Shown piece after piece: positions 41,001-53,000 of a stretch of DNA of 64,000 nt. Source of the DNA: an uncultured Gemmatimonadales bacterium. GTDB taxonomy: Bacteria > Gemmatimonadota > Gemmatimonadetes > Longimicrobiales > RSA9. Position numbers: made by a program. The stretch covers positions 160,001-224,000 of the forward strand of contig CAWCRS010000009.1 in NCBI GenBank assembly GCA_963798085.1, given 5' to 3'. How positions within the stretch are numbered: position 1 is the stretch's first letter; each line of letters starts with the position of its first letter.

Positions 41001-44000
41001 CGCTTCGCCGCACAGCTCCTCGTTCCGCTGCGCTACAACTCGGATCCGCAGCAGCTCGCGCTCGCGGAACGCGTCACCGCGTCGCTGGCTGCGCTGCCGG
41101 GCGTGGCCGACGTCACGTACACGAGCCGGCTGCCGTTCACGGGCACGACGATCCTGATGGGCAACGTTGTGGCGGACCCGGCCGAGCCCGGCTCGGCGCC
41201 TGTGCCGGTGGGCGCGCGCACCATTGCGGACGACTATTTCCGCGTGCTGGATGTGCCGGTCGTCGAGGGGCGCGCGTTCTCGACGACCGACGGTCTCGAT
41301 ACCGAGCCAGTCGTCATTGTGAACGAGACGTTCCGGCGACATTACTTCCCGGCCGGACGCGCTGTGGGCGCGCGCATCACATGGGACAAGGATCCGGGCC
41401 CACGCTCCGACTGGTATCGCATCGTCGGCGTCGTGCCGGACCAGCTCCAGCTGGATCCGCGATCCGCCACGCGGCTGGAAGTATTCTTCGCGTTCCGGCA
41501 GAAGCCCGGCCGCTTCCTCAACATGCTGTTGCGGGTTCGTCCGGGTACGCGTTCGCTCGAGCCGGCGATTCGCGAGCGACTGTCCGCGGTCGACCCGGCG
41601 CTGGCCGTCTTTTCGTTCCGTTCGCTGGAATCCGTCCACGCGGAGACGCTGAGCCCCGACCGCTCGCTCACGCTGCTCACTGCGATCTTCGCCAGTGTCG
41701 CGCTCTTCCTCGCCGTGATCGGCATCCATGGCGCCACCGCCGAAACCGTCCGGCGGCGGACGAAAGAGATCGGCATCCGTGTGGCGCTGGGCGCGCAGTC
41801 CCGCGATATCGCCGGGCTCGCGCTGCGCGAGAGCGCACGGCTTGCGGGCATGGGCACGATCGCGGGCCTGGTCCTCGCTCTCGCCGGTTCCCGCATCCTG
41901 GCGAGTGTCCTCTTTGCGGTCGACGTGCACGACATCACGACCTGGATACTGGTGCCCACTGGACTTCTCATCACGGCCATTGCCGCGAGCGGCCGACCCG
42001 CGTTGCAGGCCGCGCGCATTGACCCCCTCGACGCGCTGGGCCGCGACGCAACCTGATGTCGCTGGAAACACGGGATTTCAGGCGGCGGCTGGCGCAGCAG
42101 GCCCACCGGGAGTCGCAGCTTCAGCACAGCGTCGCCGACCGCTATGCCGGTGCCGTCGGCCGCAGGTCCAGCACTTCGCCGTTGATGTACCCGGCATCGG
42201 GCGACAGCAGGAAACACGCTGTTTGAACGGCGGCTTCGGCAGCCGCCTCGCCATCCTGTGGAACGATCACGGCATTGCAGGTGATGCTGCGCCGGCCGTA
42301 CTCGATGGCGATGGCGCGGGCCAGGCAGACCAGGGCCTCACACAACGATGCGGGGATGGTGGCGGGCTCGCGCGGGCAGCGCACGAACACCAGCAGCCGG
42401 CCGCCTTCACCGCCGGCCATGAACTCGTCGACCACGCGGCGGGCCACGAGGAACGCGGCGCGCAGCGGCGAGGTGAGCGCGGCATGCCACGCGGCAGTGC
42501 AGCCGCCGGTGAGTGATACATCCTTCGCGGACGTGTCGGCGAGGAGGATCATGCCGGCGGGCGTTCCCATCCCGGCGAGCACGTTGTCGAGCGCGTCGTC
42601 GACATTCTGCTCTTCCGACAGATCACGCGTGTGGCGCAGGTTTTCGGTGCGCCAGCCTTCGCGCGCGAGCGCCTCGGTCAACGCGCAGCCCAGGCCGCCG
42701 GCAGCGCCGGTCACGTCTGCGACGACCAGACCGCCGGGCGAAGCCTGCAGCATCATGCGACGCGCACAGCGCTGACGCTGGCGTCAGCGAACGTGGAGCA
42801 TGCCGCGGCGGGGAACTGTCGCCGCACGCAGCGCAGCAGCACATCGCCGGGCCCGCACTGAATGAACGTCGCTACGCCCAGCGCGCGCACGGCCTCAATG
42901 CTTTCCTGGAAGAGCACCGGCGCCGTCAGCTGGCGCAGAATCGATGCGCGCACGGCACGCGCCGTGGTGAGCGGGTGCGCGGTCACATTGTCGATGACGA
43001 CCGCCTGCGGATCGGCGATCGGGCAGCGCGCGACGACGGGCGCGAGCGCATCGGCCGCGGGGCGCAGCAGTTCCGAGTGCGTGGCGATGGACACCGCCAG
43101 CGGTACCACGCCGAAGCCCGCGGCATCGAGTGCGTCGCCTACCGCGTCGACGGCGGGACGCGTGCCCGAGATGACCGTCTGGTCCGGAGCGTTGTGGCAG
43201 GCCACGCCGACCACGCCGAGAGCCTGTCCCTGGCGGCACGCCGCGTACACGGCCGCGCGGTCGGCTCCCAGAATAGCGGCCATGGCGCCGCCTTCGGGCG
43301 GCATGGCGGCGGCCATTGCTCTTGCCCTTGCCTGCAGCAGCTCGAGCGCCGGCTCGAACGCAATGGCGCCGGCCGCCACCAGTGCTGCGAATTGCCCGAC
43401 GCTGTGACCGATGAGCATGCGCGGCTCGATGCCCTGCGCGCGCAGCCGGAGCGCGTGCAGCACGCCGATGGTGAGGAGCGCAGGCTGGGCTAACTCCGTG
43501 TTTAGCAGTGCTTCGGCCGGTCCTTCGCGCATCAGCCGGGAGAGCGGCCGACTCAGGCGGGCATCCGCGGCCGCCAGCAGATCCTGCGCAAAAGGCGCGC
43601 TTGCCAGCGCGTCATCGAGCATGCCTGCGGCCTGACTGCCCTGGCCGGCGAAGAGCAGCGCCACGCCGTGCGGAGTCACGATGCCCGTCCCACCACGAGC
43701 GATGTGCTCAGCCCGCCGAAGCCGAAGGAGTTGGACAGGGCAATGTCAATGGGCTGTTCGCGCGCGTGGTTGGGCACGAAATCGAGATCCAGCGCCGGAT
43801 CGGGGTCATCGAGGTTAATGGTCGGATGCAGCACGCCCTGCTCGAGTTGCATGACGGTGGCGACCAGCTCGACAATGCCCGCGGCGCTCAGGCAGTGACC
43901 GGTCAGGGACTTTGTCGAATTGATAGCGAGGTTCCATGCGTGGCGGCCGAACACCTCCTTGAGCGAATCCACCTCGGTGGCATCACCCAGCGGCGTGGAG

Positions 44001-50000: not shown

Positions 50001-53000
50001 GCCTTCCGCGAGACTGTCGAGAATGCCGATCAGCGAGAGGAACACGCAGCCGGAGTAGGTATTGCCCACCAGTCGCGTGTAGGTGAGCGAAGGCCTGACC
50101 ATGCGCTCGAAGCTGGCGGACACATCGGCATCGGACGCGTCGGGCTTGTCACCCTGCATCAGCGCGCGATGCGCCTGCTGCACCAGCCAGACCAGCGGCG
50201 TGTGGAACGCCATGTAGCGGAAATGCTGCTCGAAGCGCACCGGTCCCGCCTGGTTGCGATACTGCTCCCACGCCAGGTCGAGCATGTCGAGGTACGCCGA
50301 GACGGAACGCAGCGGATCGCCTGCTTCCTGCAACGGGCGAGGCCGGCGCAGGTCACGCACGTCATCCGCCGCGCAGCCTTCCACGGGATCGAGATTCAGA
50401 ACACGCGGGTCGCTCGACACCACGATCGCCACAGACCCCTCGCCCGACGTCATCTCCGCCGGGTGATGCGGGCGGCGTCCGGCCAGATCCGTGGTGACCA
50501 CGAGCGCCCGGCGGCCGCGCGCAATGCCCGAACGCACCCATGCGGCGGCCAGCTGGAGCGCAGTGACACCCGCATAACACGCGTTTTTCAGTTCGACATG
50601 CCGGCACGACGTGGACAGGCCGAGTCCCTGATGGACGTGCGTGCTGATGGGAATGCCGTAGTCCAGCGCCGTTTCGGTTGCGACCAGCAGCAGGCCGAAG
50701 CTTTCGCGGCCGGCCGCGCGCACCAGCGGATCCGCCGAGTTGACCGCCAGCGTCACGGGGTCCTCGAAAGGCGGCACCACCGACCGGCGCACGAACTGCG
50801 CGTGCCCACGCTCGCGTTCCGTCAGCCCGCGCTCGCGCGCGATCGCGTCATAACTGATGGTCAGCGGACCCGTGTACAGATTGATGTCGTCGATTCCGAC
50901 CGCACCGATCATGGGCCGTGCTCCTCGCAGCGGGTGACTGCTCGCTCCCCGCAGAAGTAACGGACCCTCGGCGCGCGATTCTCACGGGGTCGTCCGCCCA
51001 GGCGTCACGCCGCGGGGAGTCCGCGACGCGTCCGGGTGGCCGCCGTGGCGCCCGGCGTCGCCGGGGACAGGCACCCGACCCCGCGAGCGCCGCCATCCAT
51101 CACTGCCGGGTCGCCCTCGGGACAGGCTGGCTGTTAGGGTTGCGGGCATGTCGACATCGACGCTTCGCCTGGATTACGCCGGCCGACTGCTCTGCGTGCC
51201 GGCATTCGGCCTGCTCGCGGGTGCGCTCGCCGCACGCGCGCAGGCGCCGCTGGAAGCGCCCCGGCTGGAGACAGTCGCCACGGGCGTGTACGTGCTGCAC
51301 AACCCGCGCGCCAACGAGTCCTGGCCACAGGGTAACACGGTGATAGTGGTGGGCGACCGGGCGGCGCTGGTTGTCGACGCGGACTACCTGCCCGGCACCG
51401 CACGCGCCGATATCGACATCATCCGTCGTCTCACCGACAAGCCTGTGCGCTACCTCGTCAACACGCACTGGCACTACGACCACACCAACGGCAACTACGT
51501 GTATCGCGCGGCGTTTCCGGGCCTCTCGATCATTGCGCACCCGGAGACGCGGCGACTGCTGCGCGAGAACGCGCCGCGCTACCTCGCCTCGGTACTCGCG
51601 CCCGAGTCGCCCGTGCGCAAGTCGGTGGCGAATTCGAAGAAGGTGCTGGCCGATCTCGCCGCGAAGGGCGACACGACGGGTCGCGCGCTGTACCAGCAGC
51701 GCCTGGCACAGCGCGAGCTGGAGCTGCGCGAAATTGCGCAGGTGCACGTCGACCTGCCCGACCTGCTGGTGGAACACGAATTGACGATCGACCTGGGCGG
51801 GCGCGAGGTGGTCATTCGACACCTGGGCCGGGGCAACACACCAGGCGATCTCGTGATCTGGCTGCCGCAGGAGCACATCATCGCCACGGGCGACATCGTC
51901 GTCTCACCCATGCCGTACGCCTACAACTCGAGTCCCGGCAGCTGGCTCGGCGTGCTGGATGCGATCCTCGCGCTGCAGCCGCGCGCGCTGCTGCCCGGCC
52001 ACGGCGAAGTGCAGCGCCCGGCCGATGCACCAGGCGCAGCCCATGCGGGTACCGGCGCGGCGGAGCCTGCTAATGTCGCGTTCGTGCGATCGCTGGACTA
52101 CACGCGCGCCGTGCGCGACATGATCGCGGATGTGGTGGACAGAGTGCGCACCGCGTATCGCGCCGGGAAAACGGAAGACGAAGCACGCGCGTCGATCGAC
52201 TTCACCGCGTACCTGCGGCGCCTTGCCGGCGAGGACGAGTTCCTGCAGCAGGTGTTTACCAGCTCGATCGTGACGGCACTGGTGGACCGCGCGTGGGCGG
52301 AGGCGGGGGGCGGCACGTAGCGGAGCAGGTCGAGGACCTCAGCGCGCGTGCGTGAGAGCACGGGCGAACCGGCTGCCGCAGGGCGGGTAGCAACGGCGCA
52401 CCCACACGCCGGCGGACTGCTGATGCGCCACCCGGAAAGACACGGCTGCCTCATCGGCGCGCACACTGCGCCCGCCGCACACGCGCCCTCGTGACAACCA
52501 GCCAGGCGCCCGCCAGAGCACACACGGGCAGCGTCGGCTTCCTCGAGGCCACGGCGCTGGGGATCGGCGGCATGGTTGGCGGCGGCATCTTCGCGGTGCT
52601 CGGACTCGCCGTGCAGCTGGCCGGCGGAGGCACACCACTGGCGTTTCTGCTGGGCGGCGGCGTCGCGCTGCTCACGGCGTACGCGTACAGCAGGCTCTCC
52701 GTGACCTTCCCCAGCCAGGGCGGCACGGTTTCCTTTCTCAACCTCGCCTTCGGCGATGGGCCGCTCACCGGTTCGCTCAATGTGCTGCTCTGGCTCAGCT
52801 ATATCATCATGTTAGCGCTATACGCATTCGCCTTCGGCAGCTACGGCGCCACCTTCTTCGCGCCGGCAGCGCGTGCGCTCTGGCAGCACATCCTGATGAG
52901 CGGCATCATCATTGCCATGGCCGCGCTCAACCTGCTGAGCACGCGCATCGTGGGCGACGTGGAAGACTGGGTGGTCGCCATCAAGCTCGTGATCCTGCTG

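Follow-up and report, generated by a model that had tools for sequence, protein, structure and literature searches.

The locus studied here raises the question of what is made when the methyl-branching enzymes familiar from giant polyketide assembly lines occur with a small carrier protein of their own and fatty-acid-type enzymes. It lies at positions 42142-50912 (minus strand) of the window, a 64,000-nt stretch of DNA from an uncultured Gemmatimonadales bacterium. The first-pass annotation described eleven co-directional genes and read them as a free-standing cassette for iso-acyl primers. All eleven genes were found, co-directional on the minus strand, ten of them by Pfam and NCBIfam matches and the ACP by DNA reading (Table 1). 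They form one tightly packed operon in which neighboring stops and starts overlap or nearly abut: the stop of HMGS and the ATG of ECH1 (49699) overlap, and FabZ starts with GTG at 46565, overlapping the ER stop. The earlier reading as a discrete type II system is upheld by a PKS-type HMG-ACP synthase, a dedicated carrier protein and a genome without an assembly line, whereas the uniqueness does not stand and the primer role is unlikely. We tentatively propose a self-contained type II pathway that would assemble a methyl-branched acyl chain of short or medium length on a dedicated ACP, for a specialised product and not for bulk membrane lipid.

Table 1. Genes of the cassette (window coordinates).
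Feature	Position	Strand	Size and evidence
HMG-ACP synthase (PKS/HCS type; HMGS)	49686..50912	-	408 aa; Pfam HMG_CoA_synt_N + HMG_CoA_synt_C
ECH1, crotonase-fold dehydratase candidate (PksH-like)	48947..49699	-	~250 aa; Pfam ECH_1 + ECH_2
KR, FabG-like ketoreductase	48153..48950	-	265 aa; adh_short_C2 169 bits; YxxxK
ECH2, PksI/CurF-like, Gln for catalytic His	47389..48156	-	~255 aa; NCBIfam PRK07110
ER, FabL-like enoyl-ACP reductase (SDR)	46562..47392	-	276 aa; FabL best NCBIfam match; Y-x6-K
FabZ-like dehydratase	46014..46565	-	~183 aa; Pfam FabA
Acyl carrier protein (ACP), frame broken by one extra base	45736..45997	-	DNA reading
Sfp-type phosphopantetheinyl transferase (PPTase)	45031..45729	-	232 aa; Pfam ACPS + 4PPT_N
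Ketosynthase (KS), PksF-like by best model	43676..44956	-	426 aa; NCBIfam PRK07103
Malonyl-CoA:ACP transacylase (MCAT)	42753..43679	-	308 aa; Pfam Acyl_transf_1; TIGR00128 fabD
SDRx, SDR fold without Tyr/Lys catalytic pair, last operon gene	42142..42756	-	204 aa; adh_short_C2

Among solved relatives the HMGS scores best with CurD (220 bits), followed by PksG (192 bits); HMG-CoA synthases do not exceed 161 bits. Its Glu80, Cys112 and His237 do not vary across 22 relatives, and the catalytic residues read E-C-H in 85 of 87 family matches. On sequence, the enzyme is assigned to the ACP-dependent PKS type. For the KS, the NCBIfam model PRK07103 (390 bits, cut-off 445) outscores fabF (311 bits). 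The Cys-His-His triad is complete in the translation and reads CHH in 46 of 49 family matches, the remaining three sequences being cut off. ECH1 gives its best E-value among NCBIfam models with PRK07112 (96 bits, under the cut-off of 250); among solved relatives 4nnq scores best (93 bits). MCAT matches TIGR00128 fabD at 242 bits (cut-off 261). NCBIfam FabZ models (72 to 78 bits) and FabG models (170 to 173 bits, on a KR with a YGASK motif in its translation) also score under their cut-offs. FabL reaches 123 bits against an NCBIfam cut-off of 328 on the ER, in which the Y-x6-K motif is YDLAGAAK; the ER gene adjoins ECH2 in nearly all relatives. Most of the cassette family scores fall under the NCBIfam equivalog cut-offs, which counts against the pathway reading. 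SDRx shows a weak adh_short_C2 match (33 bits) and is located after KS or MCAT in the Gemmatimonadaceae MAG L001 and ten metagenome loci. YxxxK is absent from all six family members in the SDRx alignment; with the Tyr/Lys pair missing, SDRx is predicted to be catalytically dead.

The earlier claim that the genome has no megasynthase was borne out in the assembly (6.23 Mb, 12 contigs, 90% complete). PF00109 has seven matches, all in open frames of at most 462 aa; only three are true KSs and two of these are FabF-like. No PKS-type KS, AT-KS linker or multidomain KS was found in the 6.23 Mb, and the Condensation domain (PF00668) has zero matches in the 12 contigs. It is highly improbable that the cassette serves, as canonical cassettes do, a modular PKS encoded in the unassembled tenth of the genome. 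The incompleteness leaves room for such a partner, and a type I PKS (KS-AT-ACP) directly follows SDRx in two of the best 80 metagenome loci (L011, which has a further KS, and L041), so independence from an assembly line does not hold for the family as a whole. However, no multidomain PKS lies within reach in the other 78 of these loci, none was found within 10 kb on either side of the L001 cassette (568-kb contig), and a complete set of KS, KR, dehydratase, ER, transacylase and PPTase would be superfluous for service in trans.

We infer the substrate, reaction order, chain length and product fate of the proposed pathway as follows. The Sfp-type PPTase would arm the ACP and the transacylase would load malonyl on it. 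The KS, with its full triad, would provide acetyl-ACP and acetoacetyl-ACP. HMG-ACP synthase would then add acetyl to the beta-keto group, ECH1 would dehydrate the product to 3-methylglutaconyl-ACP, ECH2 would remove CO2 to give 3-methylcrotonyl-ACP, and the FabL-like reductase would saturate this to isovaleryl-ACP. Further C2 units may be added by KS, KR, FabZ and ER, and the acyl group would be released by an enzyme encoded away from the operon in this genome. The reaction logic of the first-pass annotation fits the gene content. Three minimal relatives (L007, L010 and L032) agree with it: they hold only HMGS, ECH1, ECH2, ER, ACP and KS, which is exactly what is required to turn acetoacetyl-ACP into a reduced branched C5/C6 acyl-ACP.

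Decarboxylation is the weakest of these steps because the catalytic His of ECH2 is Gln. The protein matches PksI (120 bits) and CurF (113 bits), with generic crotonases at 75 bits or less, and its best NCBIfam model, PRK07110, scores 190 bits (cut-off 215). The Gln aligns with PksI His230 and CurF His240, a residue described as universally conserved in beta-methyl-branch decarboxylases (PMC7501309). The gene logic allows the proposed passage from HMG-ACP through 3-methylcrotonyl-ACP to isovaleryl-ACP, but the Gln makes the decarboxylation uncertain. L001 ECH2 has the same residue, as do 7 of 38 family ECH2s in all; these fall into three lineages set apart from His-bearing neighbors in a quick HMGS tree. 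This scattered occurrence looks like a repeated functional switch and not decay. An alternative that we consider unlikely, though worth weighing, is that ECH2-Gln is non-decarboxylating and 3-methylglutaconyl-ACP either yields 3-methylglutaryl-ACP on reduction or is extended as a methyl-branched dicarboxylic acyl-ACP, an ACP-bound counterpart to the CoA-bound 3-methylglutaryl route of caprazamycin. The switch-like pattern favors it, as does the behavior of the natural Gln variant Art21-ECH: it is reported to have had no decarboxylase activity, which the Q280H mutation failed to bring back (PMC11425284). The Cpz5/Cpz25/Cpz21 supply of 3-methylglutaryl-CoA offers a precedent (PMC9636800), and carboxymethyl beta-branches are known in polyketides (PMC12560621). 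The ECH2 dN/dS of 0.19 fits a switched function too, although selection retaining ECH2 suggests that some catalysis persists, and the oxyanion-hole glycines are conserved. PksI H230A is described as retaining reduced turnover on a CoA substrate (PMC7501309), so the Gln need not abolish ECH2 activity. Furthermore, Art21 is a didomain protein from a different setting, and a plain 3-methylglutaryl route would leave KR and FabZ without an evident task.

The ACP is split by a frameshift, as had been noted in the first pass. In a three-way DNA alignment the window reads CTCGA[G]AATGG and both L001 and L002 are one base shorter. The extra base, near 45874, is directly 3' of the GADSLE serine motif and outside any homopolymer run. 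The intact L001 ACP (86 aa) shares 80% and 84% identity with the two halves, and it matches PP-binding and CurB (E 1.8e-5). The Trp flag of acceptor ACPs is missing from the cassette ACP, and Val is found there in 19 of 19 family ACPs read. Canonical cassettes pair a donor with an acceptor ACP, and the single ACP here counts against the pathway reading. So do the frame-shifted state of this only ACP in the assembly and the absence of an adjoining hand-off enzyme or thioesterase: none conserved beside the cassette was found in the window or L001. The insertion, the ECH2 Gln and the lack of a linked off-loading gene would also fit a decaying remnant with a truly broken ACP, a lost ECH2 His, no partner enzyme and no product. 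We judge such decay improbable: the ACP halves are otherwise intact, dN/dS against L001 is 0.08 to 0.40 for all 11 genes (both ACP halves included), HMGS and KS retain their triads, and L001 combines the same Gln with an intact ACP. Conserved genes are often frame-broken in this assembly (FabF has an internal TGA, one E1 gene is in three pieces, FabD is in two, and a molybdopterin oxidoreductase is split at window 36239-38616), which points to assembly errors.

The cassette core recurs in the best 80 metagenome loci and three MAGs, in two gene orders, so the cassette is not unique; a 2019 preprint had already listed seven HCS genes adjoining type II PKS genes. In L001, where synteny of ten genes had been reported, all eleven are syntenic (48-83% identity). 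Among the 37 metagenome loci of at least 8 kb within the best 80, ECH2 is present in 37, ECH1 in 36, ER in 35, and KR, KS and ACP in 33 each. An alpha-oxoamine synthase lies beside the cassette in 15 of the best 80 loci, plus L002 and L003. Other neighbors among the 80 are MBOAT (8), DegT (3), PapA-like acyltransferase (3) and FeeM-like (1) proteins, and the hand-off neighbors in relatives include a sugar aminotransferase. Given these differing hand-off enzymes, the cassette reads as a portable acyl-ACP factory, and the operon is one member of a family of portable branched-acyl-chain kits that is both widespread and uncharacterised.

Within Gemmatimonadota the cassette is rare: a sample of 401 genomes yielded HMGS in one, the window's own, which has a single copy. 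It is therefore not a lineage-wide lipid trait. FabH is present, as stated before (C-terminal domain match, stop-free, inside a 402-aa open frame), and 2-oxoacid dehydrogenase E1 genes occur at five loci. Together these findings make bulk iso-fatty-acid priming unlikely. We give little credence to the earlier idea that leucine-independent isovaleryl-ACP, or a longer iso-acyl-ACP, is handed to the housekeeping FAS for membrane iso-fatty acids. Isovaleryl-ACP is permitted by the gene logic, the lack of an adjoining hand-off enzyme in the window and L001 would fit general lipid enzymes, and a CoA-bound de novo isovaleryl route is known in Myxococcus (PMC5389471). Against this, isovaleryl formation is doubtful given the ECH2 Gln, relatives have specialised off-loading enzymes joined to the cassette, and the operon has its own full reducing cycle and PPTase.

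The bacillaene (AcpK/PksF/PksG/PksH/PksI) and curacin (CurB-CurF) cassettes draw on the same enzyme families, with matching roles: the HMGS is nearest CurD and PksG, ECH2 is nearest PksI and CurF, the KS has PRK07103 as best model, the ACP matches the donor ACP CurB, and the malonyl transacylase is discrete. The system here differs in having no modular PKS in the genome, no Trp-flagged acceptor ACP and a single ACP, in keeping the full KS triad, in the ECH2 Gln, and in one operon that also holds KR, FabZ, ER, PPTase and the putatively dead SDR. Type II FAS (FabD, FabF, FabG, FabZ, FabL/FabI, AcpP) likewise has discrete KS, KR, dehydratase, ER, transacylase and ACP. The window enzymes are second copies, and KS, MCAT, KR and FabZ share only 33-38% identity with their primary housekeeping counterparts on contig C7; all are under equivalog cut-offs and are combined with HMGS, ECH1 and ECH2. 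Cassettes of the second gene order, those joined to alpha-oxoamine synthase, share the core of KS, KR, HMGS, ECH1, ECH2, ER, ACP and FabZ and the lack of an assembly line. They have a Spt/BioF-like condensing enzyme, usually a second ER, and His in ECH2 wherever read; in the window type SDRx is found instead, the operon lacks an oxoamine synthase, and the HMGS forms a separate clade.

The AIB pathway of Myxococcus xanthus uses a mevalonate-type HMG-CoA synthase, and its decarboxylase is not known to be of the crotonase fold. It is CoA-bound, whereas the window enzymes are all ACP-type with no CoA-transferase-like gene among the 11. Like the route proposed here, it runs de novo and independently of leucine through an HMG thioester to an isovaleryl thioester (PMC5389471). 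In caprazamycin biosynthesis, the HMG-CoA synthase Cpz5 leads to 3-methylglutaconyl-CoA, the reductase Cpz25 gives 3-methylglutaryl-CoA and Cpz21 transfers it (PMC9636800). As in the non-decarboxylating alternative above, HMG synthase, dehydration and enoyl reduction without decarboxylation supply a secondary metabolite with a branched dicarboxylic acyl donor, but the caprazamycin route is CoA-bound, with an MDR-type and not an SDR reductase and no KS, ACP or ECH2. A parallel for the Gln is found in Art21 (aurantinin), whose ECH-Q domain is a PksI-like ECH2 in which Gln likewise replaces the catalytic His. PMC11425284 places it in an ECH-TE didomain behind a complete canonical cassette, steering an assembly line, and reports His in all 48 single-domain ECHs among the Art21-ECH relatives above 40% identity (BlastP). 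In the window, the Gln form is the sole ECH2 and a single-domain protein.

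The cassette consists of eleven co-directional genes on the minus strand (window 42142-50912), with about 70% G+C and no break in composition towards its flanks. Several start codons overlap the stop codon of the preceding gene, a pattern as in a translationally coupled operon. A pattern scan of 41900-51300 found no promoter-like site; its three terminator-like matches lay on the wrong strand and were not above those in shuffled sequences.

Genes of the cassette, with positions in the window
Gene product	Position	Strand	Basis and remarks
HMG synthase (HMGS)	49686-50912	-	Pfam, NCBIfam; 5'-most gene
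ECH1	48947-49699	-	Pfam, NCBIfam
FabG-like ketoreductase (KR)	48153-48950	-	Pfam, NCBIfam
ECH2	47389-48156	-	Pfam, NCBIfam
FabL-like enoyl reductase (ER)	46562-47392	-	Pfam, NCBIfam
FabZ	46014-46565	-	Pfam, NCBIfam
ACP	45736-45997	-	Pfam, NCBIfam listing
Sfp-type PPTase	45031-45729	-	Pfam, NCBIfam
Ketosynthase (KS)	43676-44956	-	Pfam, NCBIfam
Malonyl transacylase (MCAT)	42753-43679	-	Pfam, NCBIfam
SDRx, weak SDR-fold protein	42142-42756	-	Pfam, NCBIfam

HMGS scores 220 bits against CurD and 192 bits against PksG, versus 161 bits or less against HMG-CoA synthases. Its catalytic residues Glu80, Cys112 and His237 are present and invariant in 22 relatives, and the enzyme falls into the ACP-dependent clade with a Glu/Cys/His triad that characterizes PKS-type HCS cassettes. 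ECH2 scores 120 bits against PksI and 113 bits against CurF, versus 75 bits or less against generic crotonases. For ECH1, the candidate for the PksH-type dehydratase of such cassettes, the NCBIfam model with the best E-value (PRK07112) gives only 96 bits at a cut-off of 250, and the closest solved relative, 4nnq, bears just the title 'putative enoyl-CoA hydratase'. The top model for KS is PRK07103 ('polyketide beta-ketoacyl:ACP synthase') with 390 bits, below its cut-off of 445, followed by fabF with 311 bits. PRK07103 reaches its cut-off in just one of 14 control genomes, where the match is presumably Bacillus subtilis PksF. In PKS-type HCS cassettes the KS is of the PksF type, which does not elongate but forms acetyl-ACP on a donor ACP. 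The translated KS has a complete Cys-His-His triad, so both decarboxylation and condensation are possible. KR carries YxxxK, and ER carries the Y-x6-K signature typical of FabI/FabL-type reductases. The Tyr and Lys of the catalytic pair are both missing from SDRx in six of six aligned family members, and we read it as a probable non-catalytic SDR-fold partner. Discrete KS, KR, DH, ER, MCAT and ACP with their catalytic motifs make up the equipment of a type II fatty acid synthase. Every NCBIfam score of the cassette KS, KR, DH, ER and MCAT is below the equivalog cut-off, and these enzymes are therefore paralogues and not the housekeeping enzymes. Housekeeping FabH, FabD, FabG and FabF are located on contig C7 of the same genome (approximately 1.694-1.698 Mb) and show 33-38% identity to the cassette copies.

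The ACP gene starts with GTG at 45997, preceded by a GAGGAGG ribosome-binding motif. Its frame is broken directly after the GADSLE serine motif by a single extra base, CTCGA[G]AATGG, which is absent from the relatives L001 (Gemmatimonadaceae MAG) and L002 (Actinomycetota MAG). Interrupted frames are also common among the conserved genes of this assembly. A TGA interrupts the housekeeping FabF, FabD yields two tblastn pieces (C7 1694180-1697654), one 2-oxoacid dehydrogenase E1 gene is spread over three pieces (contig C3 881593-882569), and in the window a molybdopterin-binding oxidoreductase gene (MoCoBD_1 + MoCoBD_2, 36239-38616, plus strand) is split over two overlapping frames. An assembly error is therefore the favoured explanation of the ACP break. 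Contigs built from a public read run (0.06 of sampled words) span only 46105-46495 and leave the ACP site uncovered; no RNA data set containing the sequence was found. The extra base creates or falls in a CTCGAG hexamer (45870-45880, minus strand); one may speculate that this site, if methylated, caused a systematic long-read base-calling error. A second MoCoBD gene is found at 57851-58939. Between the window and L001, dN/dS by NG86 is 0.08-0.40 across all eleven genes, with 0.19 and 0.25 for the two ACP halves and 0.19 for ECH2, at dS values of 0.5-1.5 that are partly saturated. Compared with CurB, the donor ACP of curacin, the L001 ACP gives a weak match (E 1.8e-5), about as good as that of a housekeeping ACP. 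Acceptor ACPs carry the flag motif GxDSx5W, as described in PMC11425284. The cassette ACP has Val at the Trp position, as do 19 of 19 family ACPs read, and it is not an acceptor ACP of this kind inside a modular PKS.

The first-pass annotation had stated that the genome contains no megasynthase, and this was borne out within the 90% completeness of the assembly (6.23 Mb, 12 contigs). A PF00109 search gave seven matches, every one in an open frame of 462 aa or less, a profile search of the genome found no Condensation domain, and HMGS is present in a single copy; the absence of an assembly line is thereby confirmed, with no modular PKS found in the assembly. Three of the seven matches are true ketosynthases (two FabF-like enzymes and the cassette KS). 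The remaining four match over a short stretch only, lie in frames of about 400 aa and are probably thiolases.

A scan of the genome collection with HMGS as query gave five loci. L001 matches the window's gene order throughout, with all eleven genes at 48-83% identity and an intact ACP of 86 aa. L002 and L003 (a Spirochaetia MAG) carry the core in other orders together with an alpha-oxoamine synthase of the Spt/BioF/Kbl family. In L004 (Streptomyces) only HMGS, ECH1 and an acyltransferase match and the adjoining open frames are about 900-1,160 aa long; it was taken for an ordinary PKS cluster. In a metagenome scan, 419 of 509 pattern-matching stretches encoded a relative, and the best 80 of these 419 were analysed. 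Two gene orders dominate among them and match two well-supported HMGS clades in a quick tree. Order A, that of the window, is HMGS-ECH1-KR-ECH2-ER-FabZ-ACP-(PPTase)-KS-(MCAT)-SDRx; order B is oxoamine synthase-MCAT-FabZ-KS-KR-HMGS-ECH1-ECH2-ER-ER-ACP. Among the 37 metagenome loci of at least 8 kb drawn from the best 80, where locus ends limit the counts, ECH2 occurs in 37, ECH1 in 36, ER in 35, and KR, KS and ACP in 33 each, followed by FabZ (27), MCAT (21), oxoamine synthase (12) and SDRx (9). Three loci (L007, L010 and L032) have a minimal form without KR, FabZ and SDRx, which makes KR and FabZ dispensable for the branching part.

Upstream of the cassette, on the divergent strand, are genes for an MBL-fold protein, an amino-acid permease and a Ser/Thr kinase; downstream are an FtsX-type permease, PadR and the split molybdopterin oxidoreductase. 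One flank of L001 encodes a CHAT protein and a sigma factor, the other an acetamidase. The flanks differ, so the shared unit is exactly the eleven genes. The MBL-fold and amino-acid permease genes (51148-53858) were considered as cassette members and rejected: they are absent from L001, and L002 has genes of these two Pfam families as well, yet the proteins are non-homologous (tblastn, E 1e-5). The glycosyltransferase genes at 28-36 kb were also discarded, as the plus-strand oxidoreductase, PadR and permease genes intervene and L001 shows no synteny there. In that region a minus-strand gene (29241-30479) encodes a protein that combines a TIR domain at its N-terminus with a carboxypeptidase-regulatory-like domain at its C-terminus, adjoining three GT2 glycosyltransferase genes and a GFO/IDH/MocA oxidoreductase gene (30469-36309). 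None of the off-loading partners seen in relatives is found near the window cassette. MBOAT, PapA-like and FeeM-like partners have no homologue in the window's genome, and DegT, GNAT, methyltransferase and DAGK-like partners have distant paralogues only, elsewhere in the genome. The operons of the window and L001 contain no Spt/BioF-family condensing enzyme of the order B type. A lone Spt/BioF-like alpha-oxoamine synthase is encoded on contig C3 (543769-544869; locus L087 6737-7918, minus strand). It scores 541 bits with SerpalmtaseCFB (cut-off 640) and 408 bits with bioF (cut-off 426) and is 50% identical to the enzyme within the L002 cassette. Neither lipid nor ACP genes were seen adjoining this C3 gene, and no link to the cassette was found.

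An unexpected residue was found in ECH2. HMMER alignment to PksI and MAFFT alignments anchored on the invariant Glu place Gln at the position of PksI His230 and CurF His240. Window and L001 ECH2 both have Gln in place of the catalytic His of the decarboxylase, although fold and family match. Among 38 family sequences, 31 have His and seven have Gln, the latter in three groups (window and L001; L007, L010 and L032; L017 and L019). In a quick HMGS tree with SH-aLRT support, these groups are set apart by His-bearing neighbours across well-supported branches, so the His-to-Gln change arose more than once. The His230 equivalent is called universally conserved in beta-methyl-branch decarboxylases in PMC7501309, which also describes residual turnover of a CoA substrate by PksI H230A; Art21-ECH, a natural Gln form, is described in PMC11425284 as having no decarboxylase activity. 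The first-pass annotation had drawn a route through HMG-ACP and 3-methylcrotonyl-ACP to isovaleryl-ACP. The reaction families of that scheme are present, but its central decarboxylation of 3-methylglutaconyl-ACP to 3-methylcrotonyl-ACP is uncertain in this cassette, given Gln in ECH2 and the published His/Gln data. The same Gln makes a carboxyl-retaining, 3-methylglutaryl-type product a serious rival, and the CoA-bound caprazamycin route set out in PMC9636800 offers a chemical precedent for it.

The best-supported account of the cassette is a self-contained type II pathway. PPTase would arm the ACP, MCAT would load malonyl, and KS would yield both acetyl-ACP and acetoacetyl-ACP. The latter would be converted by HMGS, ECH1, ECH2 and ER to a reduced branched acyl-ACP, which may then be elongated by KS, KR, FabZ and ER. 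It had also been suggested that the cassette supplies primers for iso-branched chains. As a route to bulk iso-fatty acids this is argued against: among 401 Gemmatimonadota genomes sampled, HMGS was found in the window's own only, this genome has FabH and five E1 loci, and in other loci the family is tied to specialised enzymes.

Those enzymes vary widely. In a subfamily of order A cassettes, comprising eight loci (including L021 1-2342 and L026 5932-8377), an MBOAT acyltransferase gene lies directly upstream of HMGS; in five of the eight it follows a gene for a conserved protein, about 349 aa long, that matches no Pfam family. D-alanylation systems also combine a carrier protein with an MBOAT enzyme, an arrangement that this layout may recall. 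A DegT-type sugar aminotransferase is found in three loci, one of which (L009) additionally has GNAT and two GT2 genes. PapA/Condensation-like acyltransferases occur in three loci and a FeeM-like N-acyltransferase in one (L012). In L032 (585-3616, 15691-19461) the PapA-like gene accompanies genes for an isochorismate-synthase-like protein, an adenylating enzyme, an AraC regulator, a TonB-dependent receptor and an MFS transporter, and the context of this minimal Gln-type cassette looks siderophore-like. Order B loci combine the oxoamine synthase with SDRs, FAD oxidases, a desaturase or methyltransferases. A multidomain PKS match is confined to two of the best 80 metagenome loci, L011 and L041, in which a type I PKS (KS-AT-ACP, with a further KS in L011) follows SDRx directly. 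In L041 (34% G+C; 5638-9900 and 18134-21199) the cassette has this PKS on one side and, on the other, genes for a PPTase, a DAG-kinase/YegS-like lipid kinase and two neutral-ceramidase-like proteins, a setting that may point to a lipid product, sphingolipid-like or other. From these gene neighbourhoods we infer a single portable module that builds an acyl-ACP and is combined with exchangeable off-loading enzymes. A bolder proposal, which we consider rather unlikely as a whole, is that bacteria of several phyla share a portable, PKS-independent, ACP-bound 'HMG module' making one defined branched acyl-ACP for varied off-loading enzymes (alpha-oxoamine synthase, MBOAT, PapA-like/FeeM-like acyltransferase, type I PKS). 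On this proposal the acyl group would serve to modify lipids, glycans, siderophore-like molecules or polyketide starters, and the recurrent ECH2 switch from His to Gln, which the window shows too, would turn the product from a methyl-branched (iso) chain into one of 3-methylglutaryl type that keeps its carboxyl group.

Neither the component families nor their chemistry is new. A search of CC-licensed PMC papers and bioRxiv found no characterised free-standing example and no occurrence of the terms 3-methylcrotonyl-ACP or 3-methylglutaconyl-ACP; isovaleryl-ACP appeared just in two quorum-sensing papers. Supplementary tables S173-S179 of the preprint 10.1101/509463 list seven HCS genes adjoining type II PKS genes, which may include relatives of the cassette. 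If confirmed, the pathway would provide a general means of making branched acyl groups independently of leucine, for use in lipids, cell-surface polymers and small molecules, and a compact kit of eight to eleven genes for branched-chain engineering; the natural His/Gln pair of ECH2 gives a handle on what governs whether the carboxyl is kept or lost. The Myxococcus AIB pathway uses CoA-bound intermediates and the CoA-transferase-like decarboxylase AibA/AibB. In contrast, the cassette HMGS is of the ACP-dependent type, ACP and PPTase are present, and none of the eleven proteins matches a CoA-transferase family. Order B cassettes carry an Spt/BioF-family enzyme whereas the window's operon does not; specific to the window are order A with a dead SDR, an ECH2 of the Gln form and the lack of any linked off-loading enzyme. 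The HMG synthase type is shared with PKS HCS cassettes, from which the window's cassette differs by its Gln-form ECH2 and the absence of a modular PKS acceptor ACP. Where the cited literature discusses HMG synthase cassettes, beta-branching is treated as tailoring carried out on modular polyketide assembly lines. In the cassette this chemistry would instead proceed on a free ACP together with fatty-acid-type enzymes, and the gene set is found repeatedly, beside changing off-loading enzymes, in metagenomes of soil and sediment and in at least three phyla.
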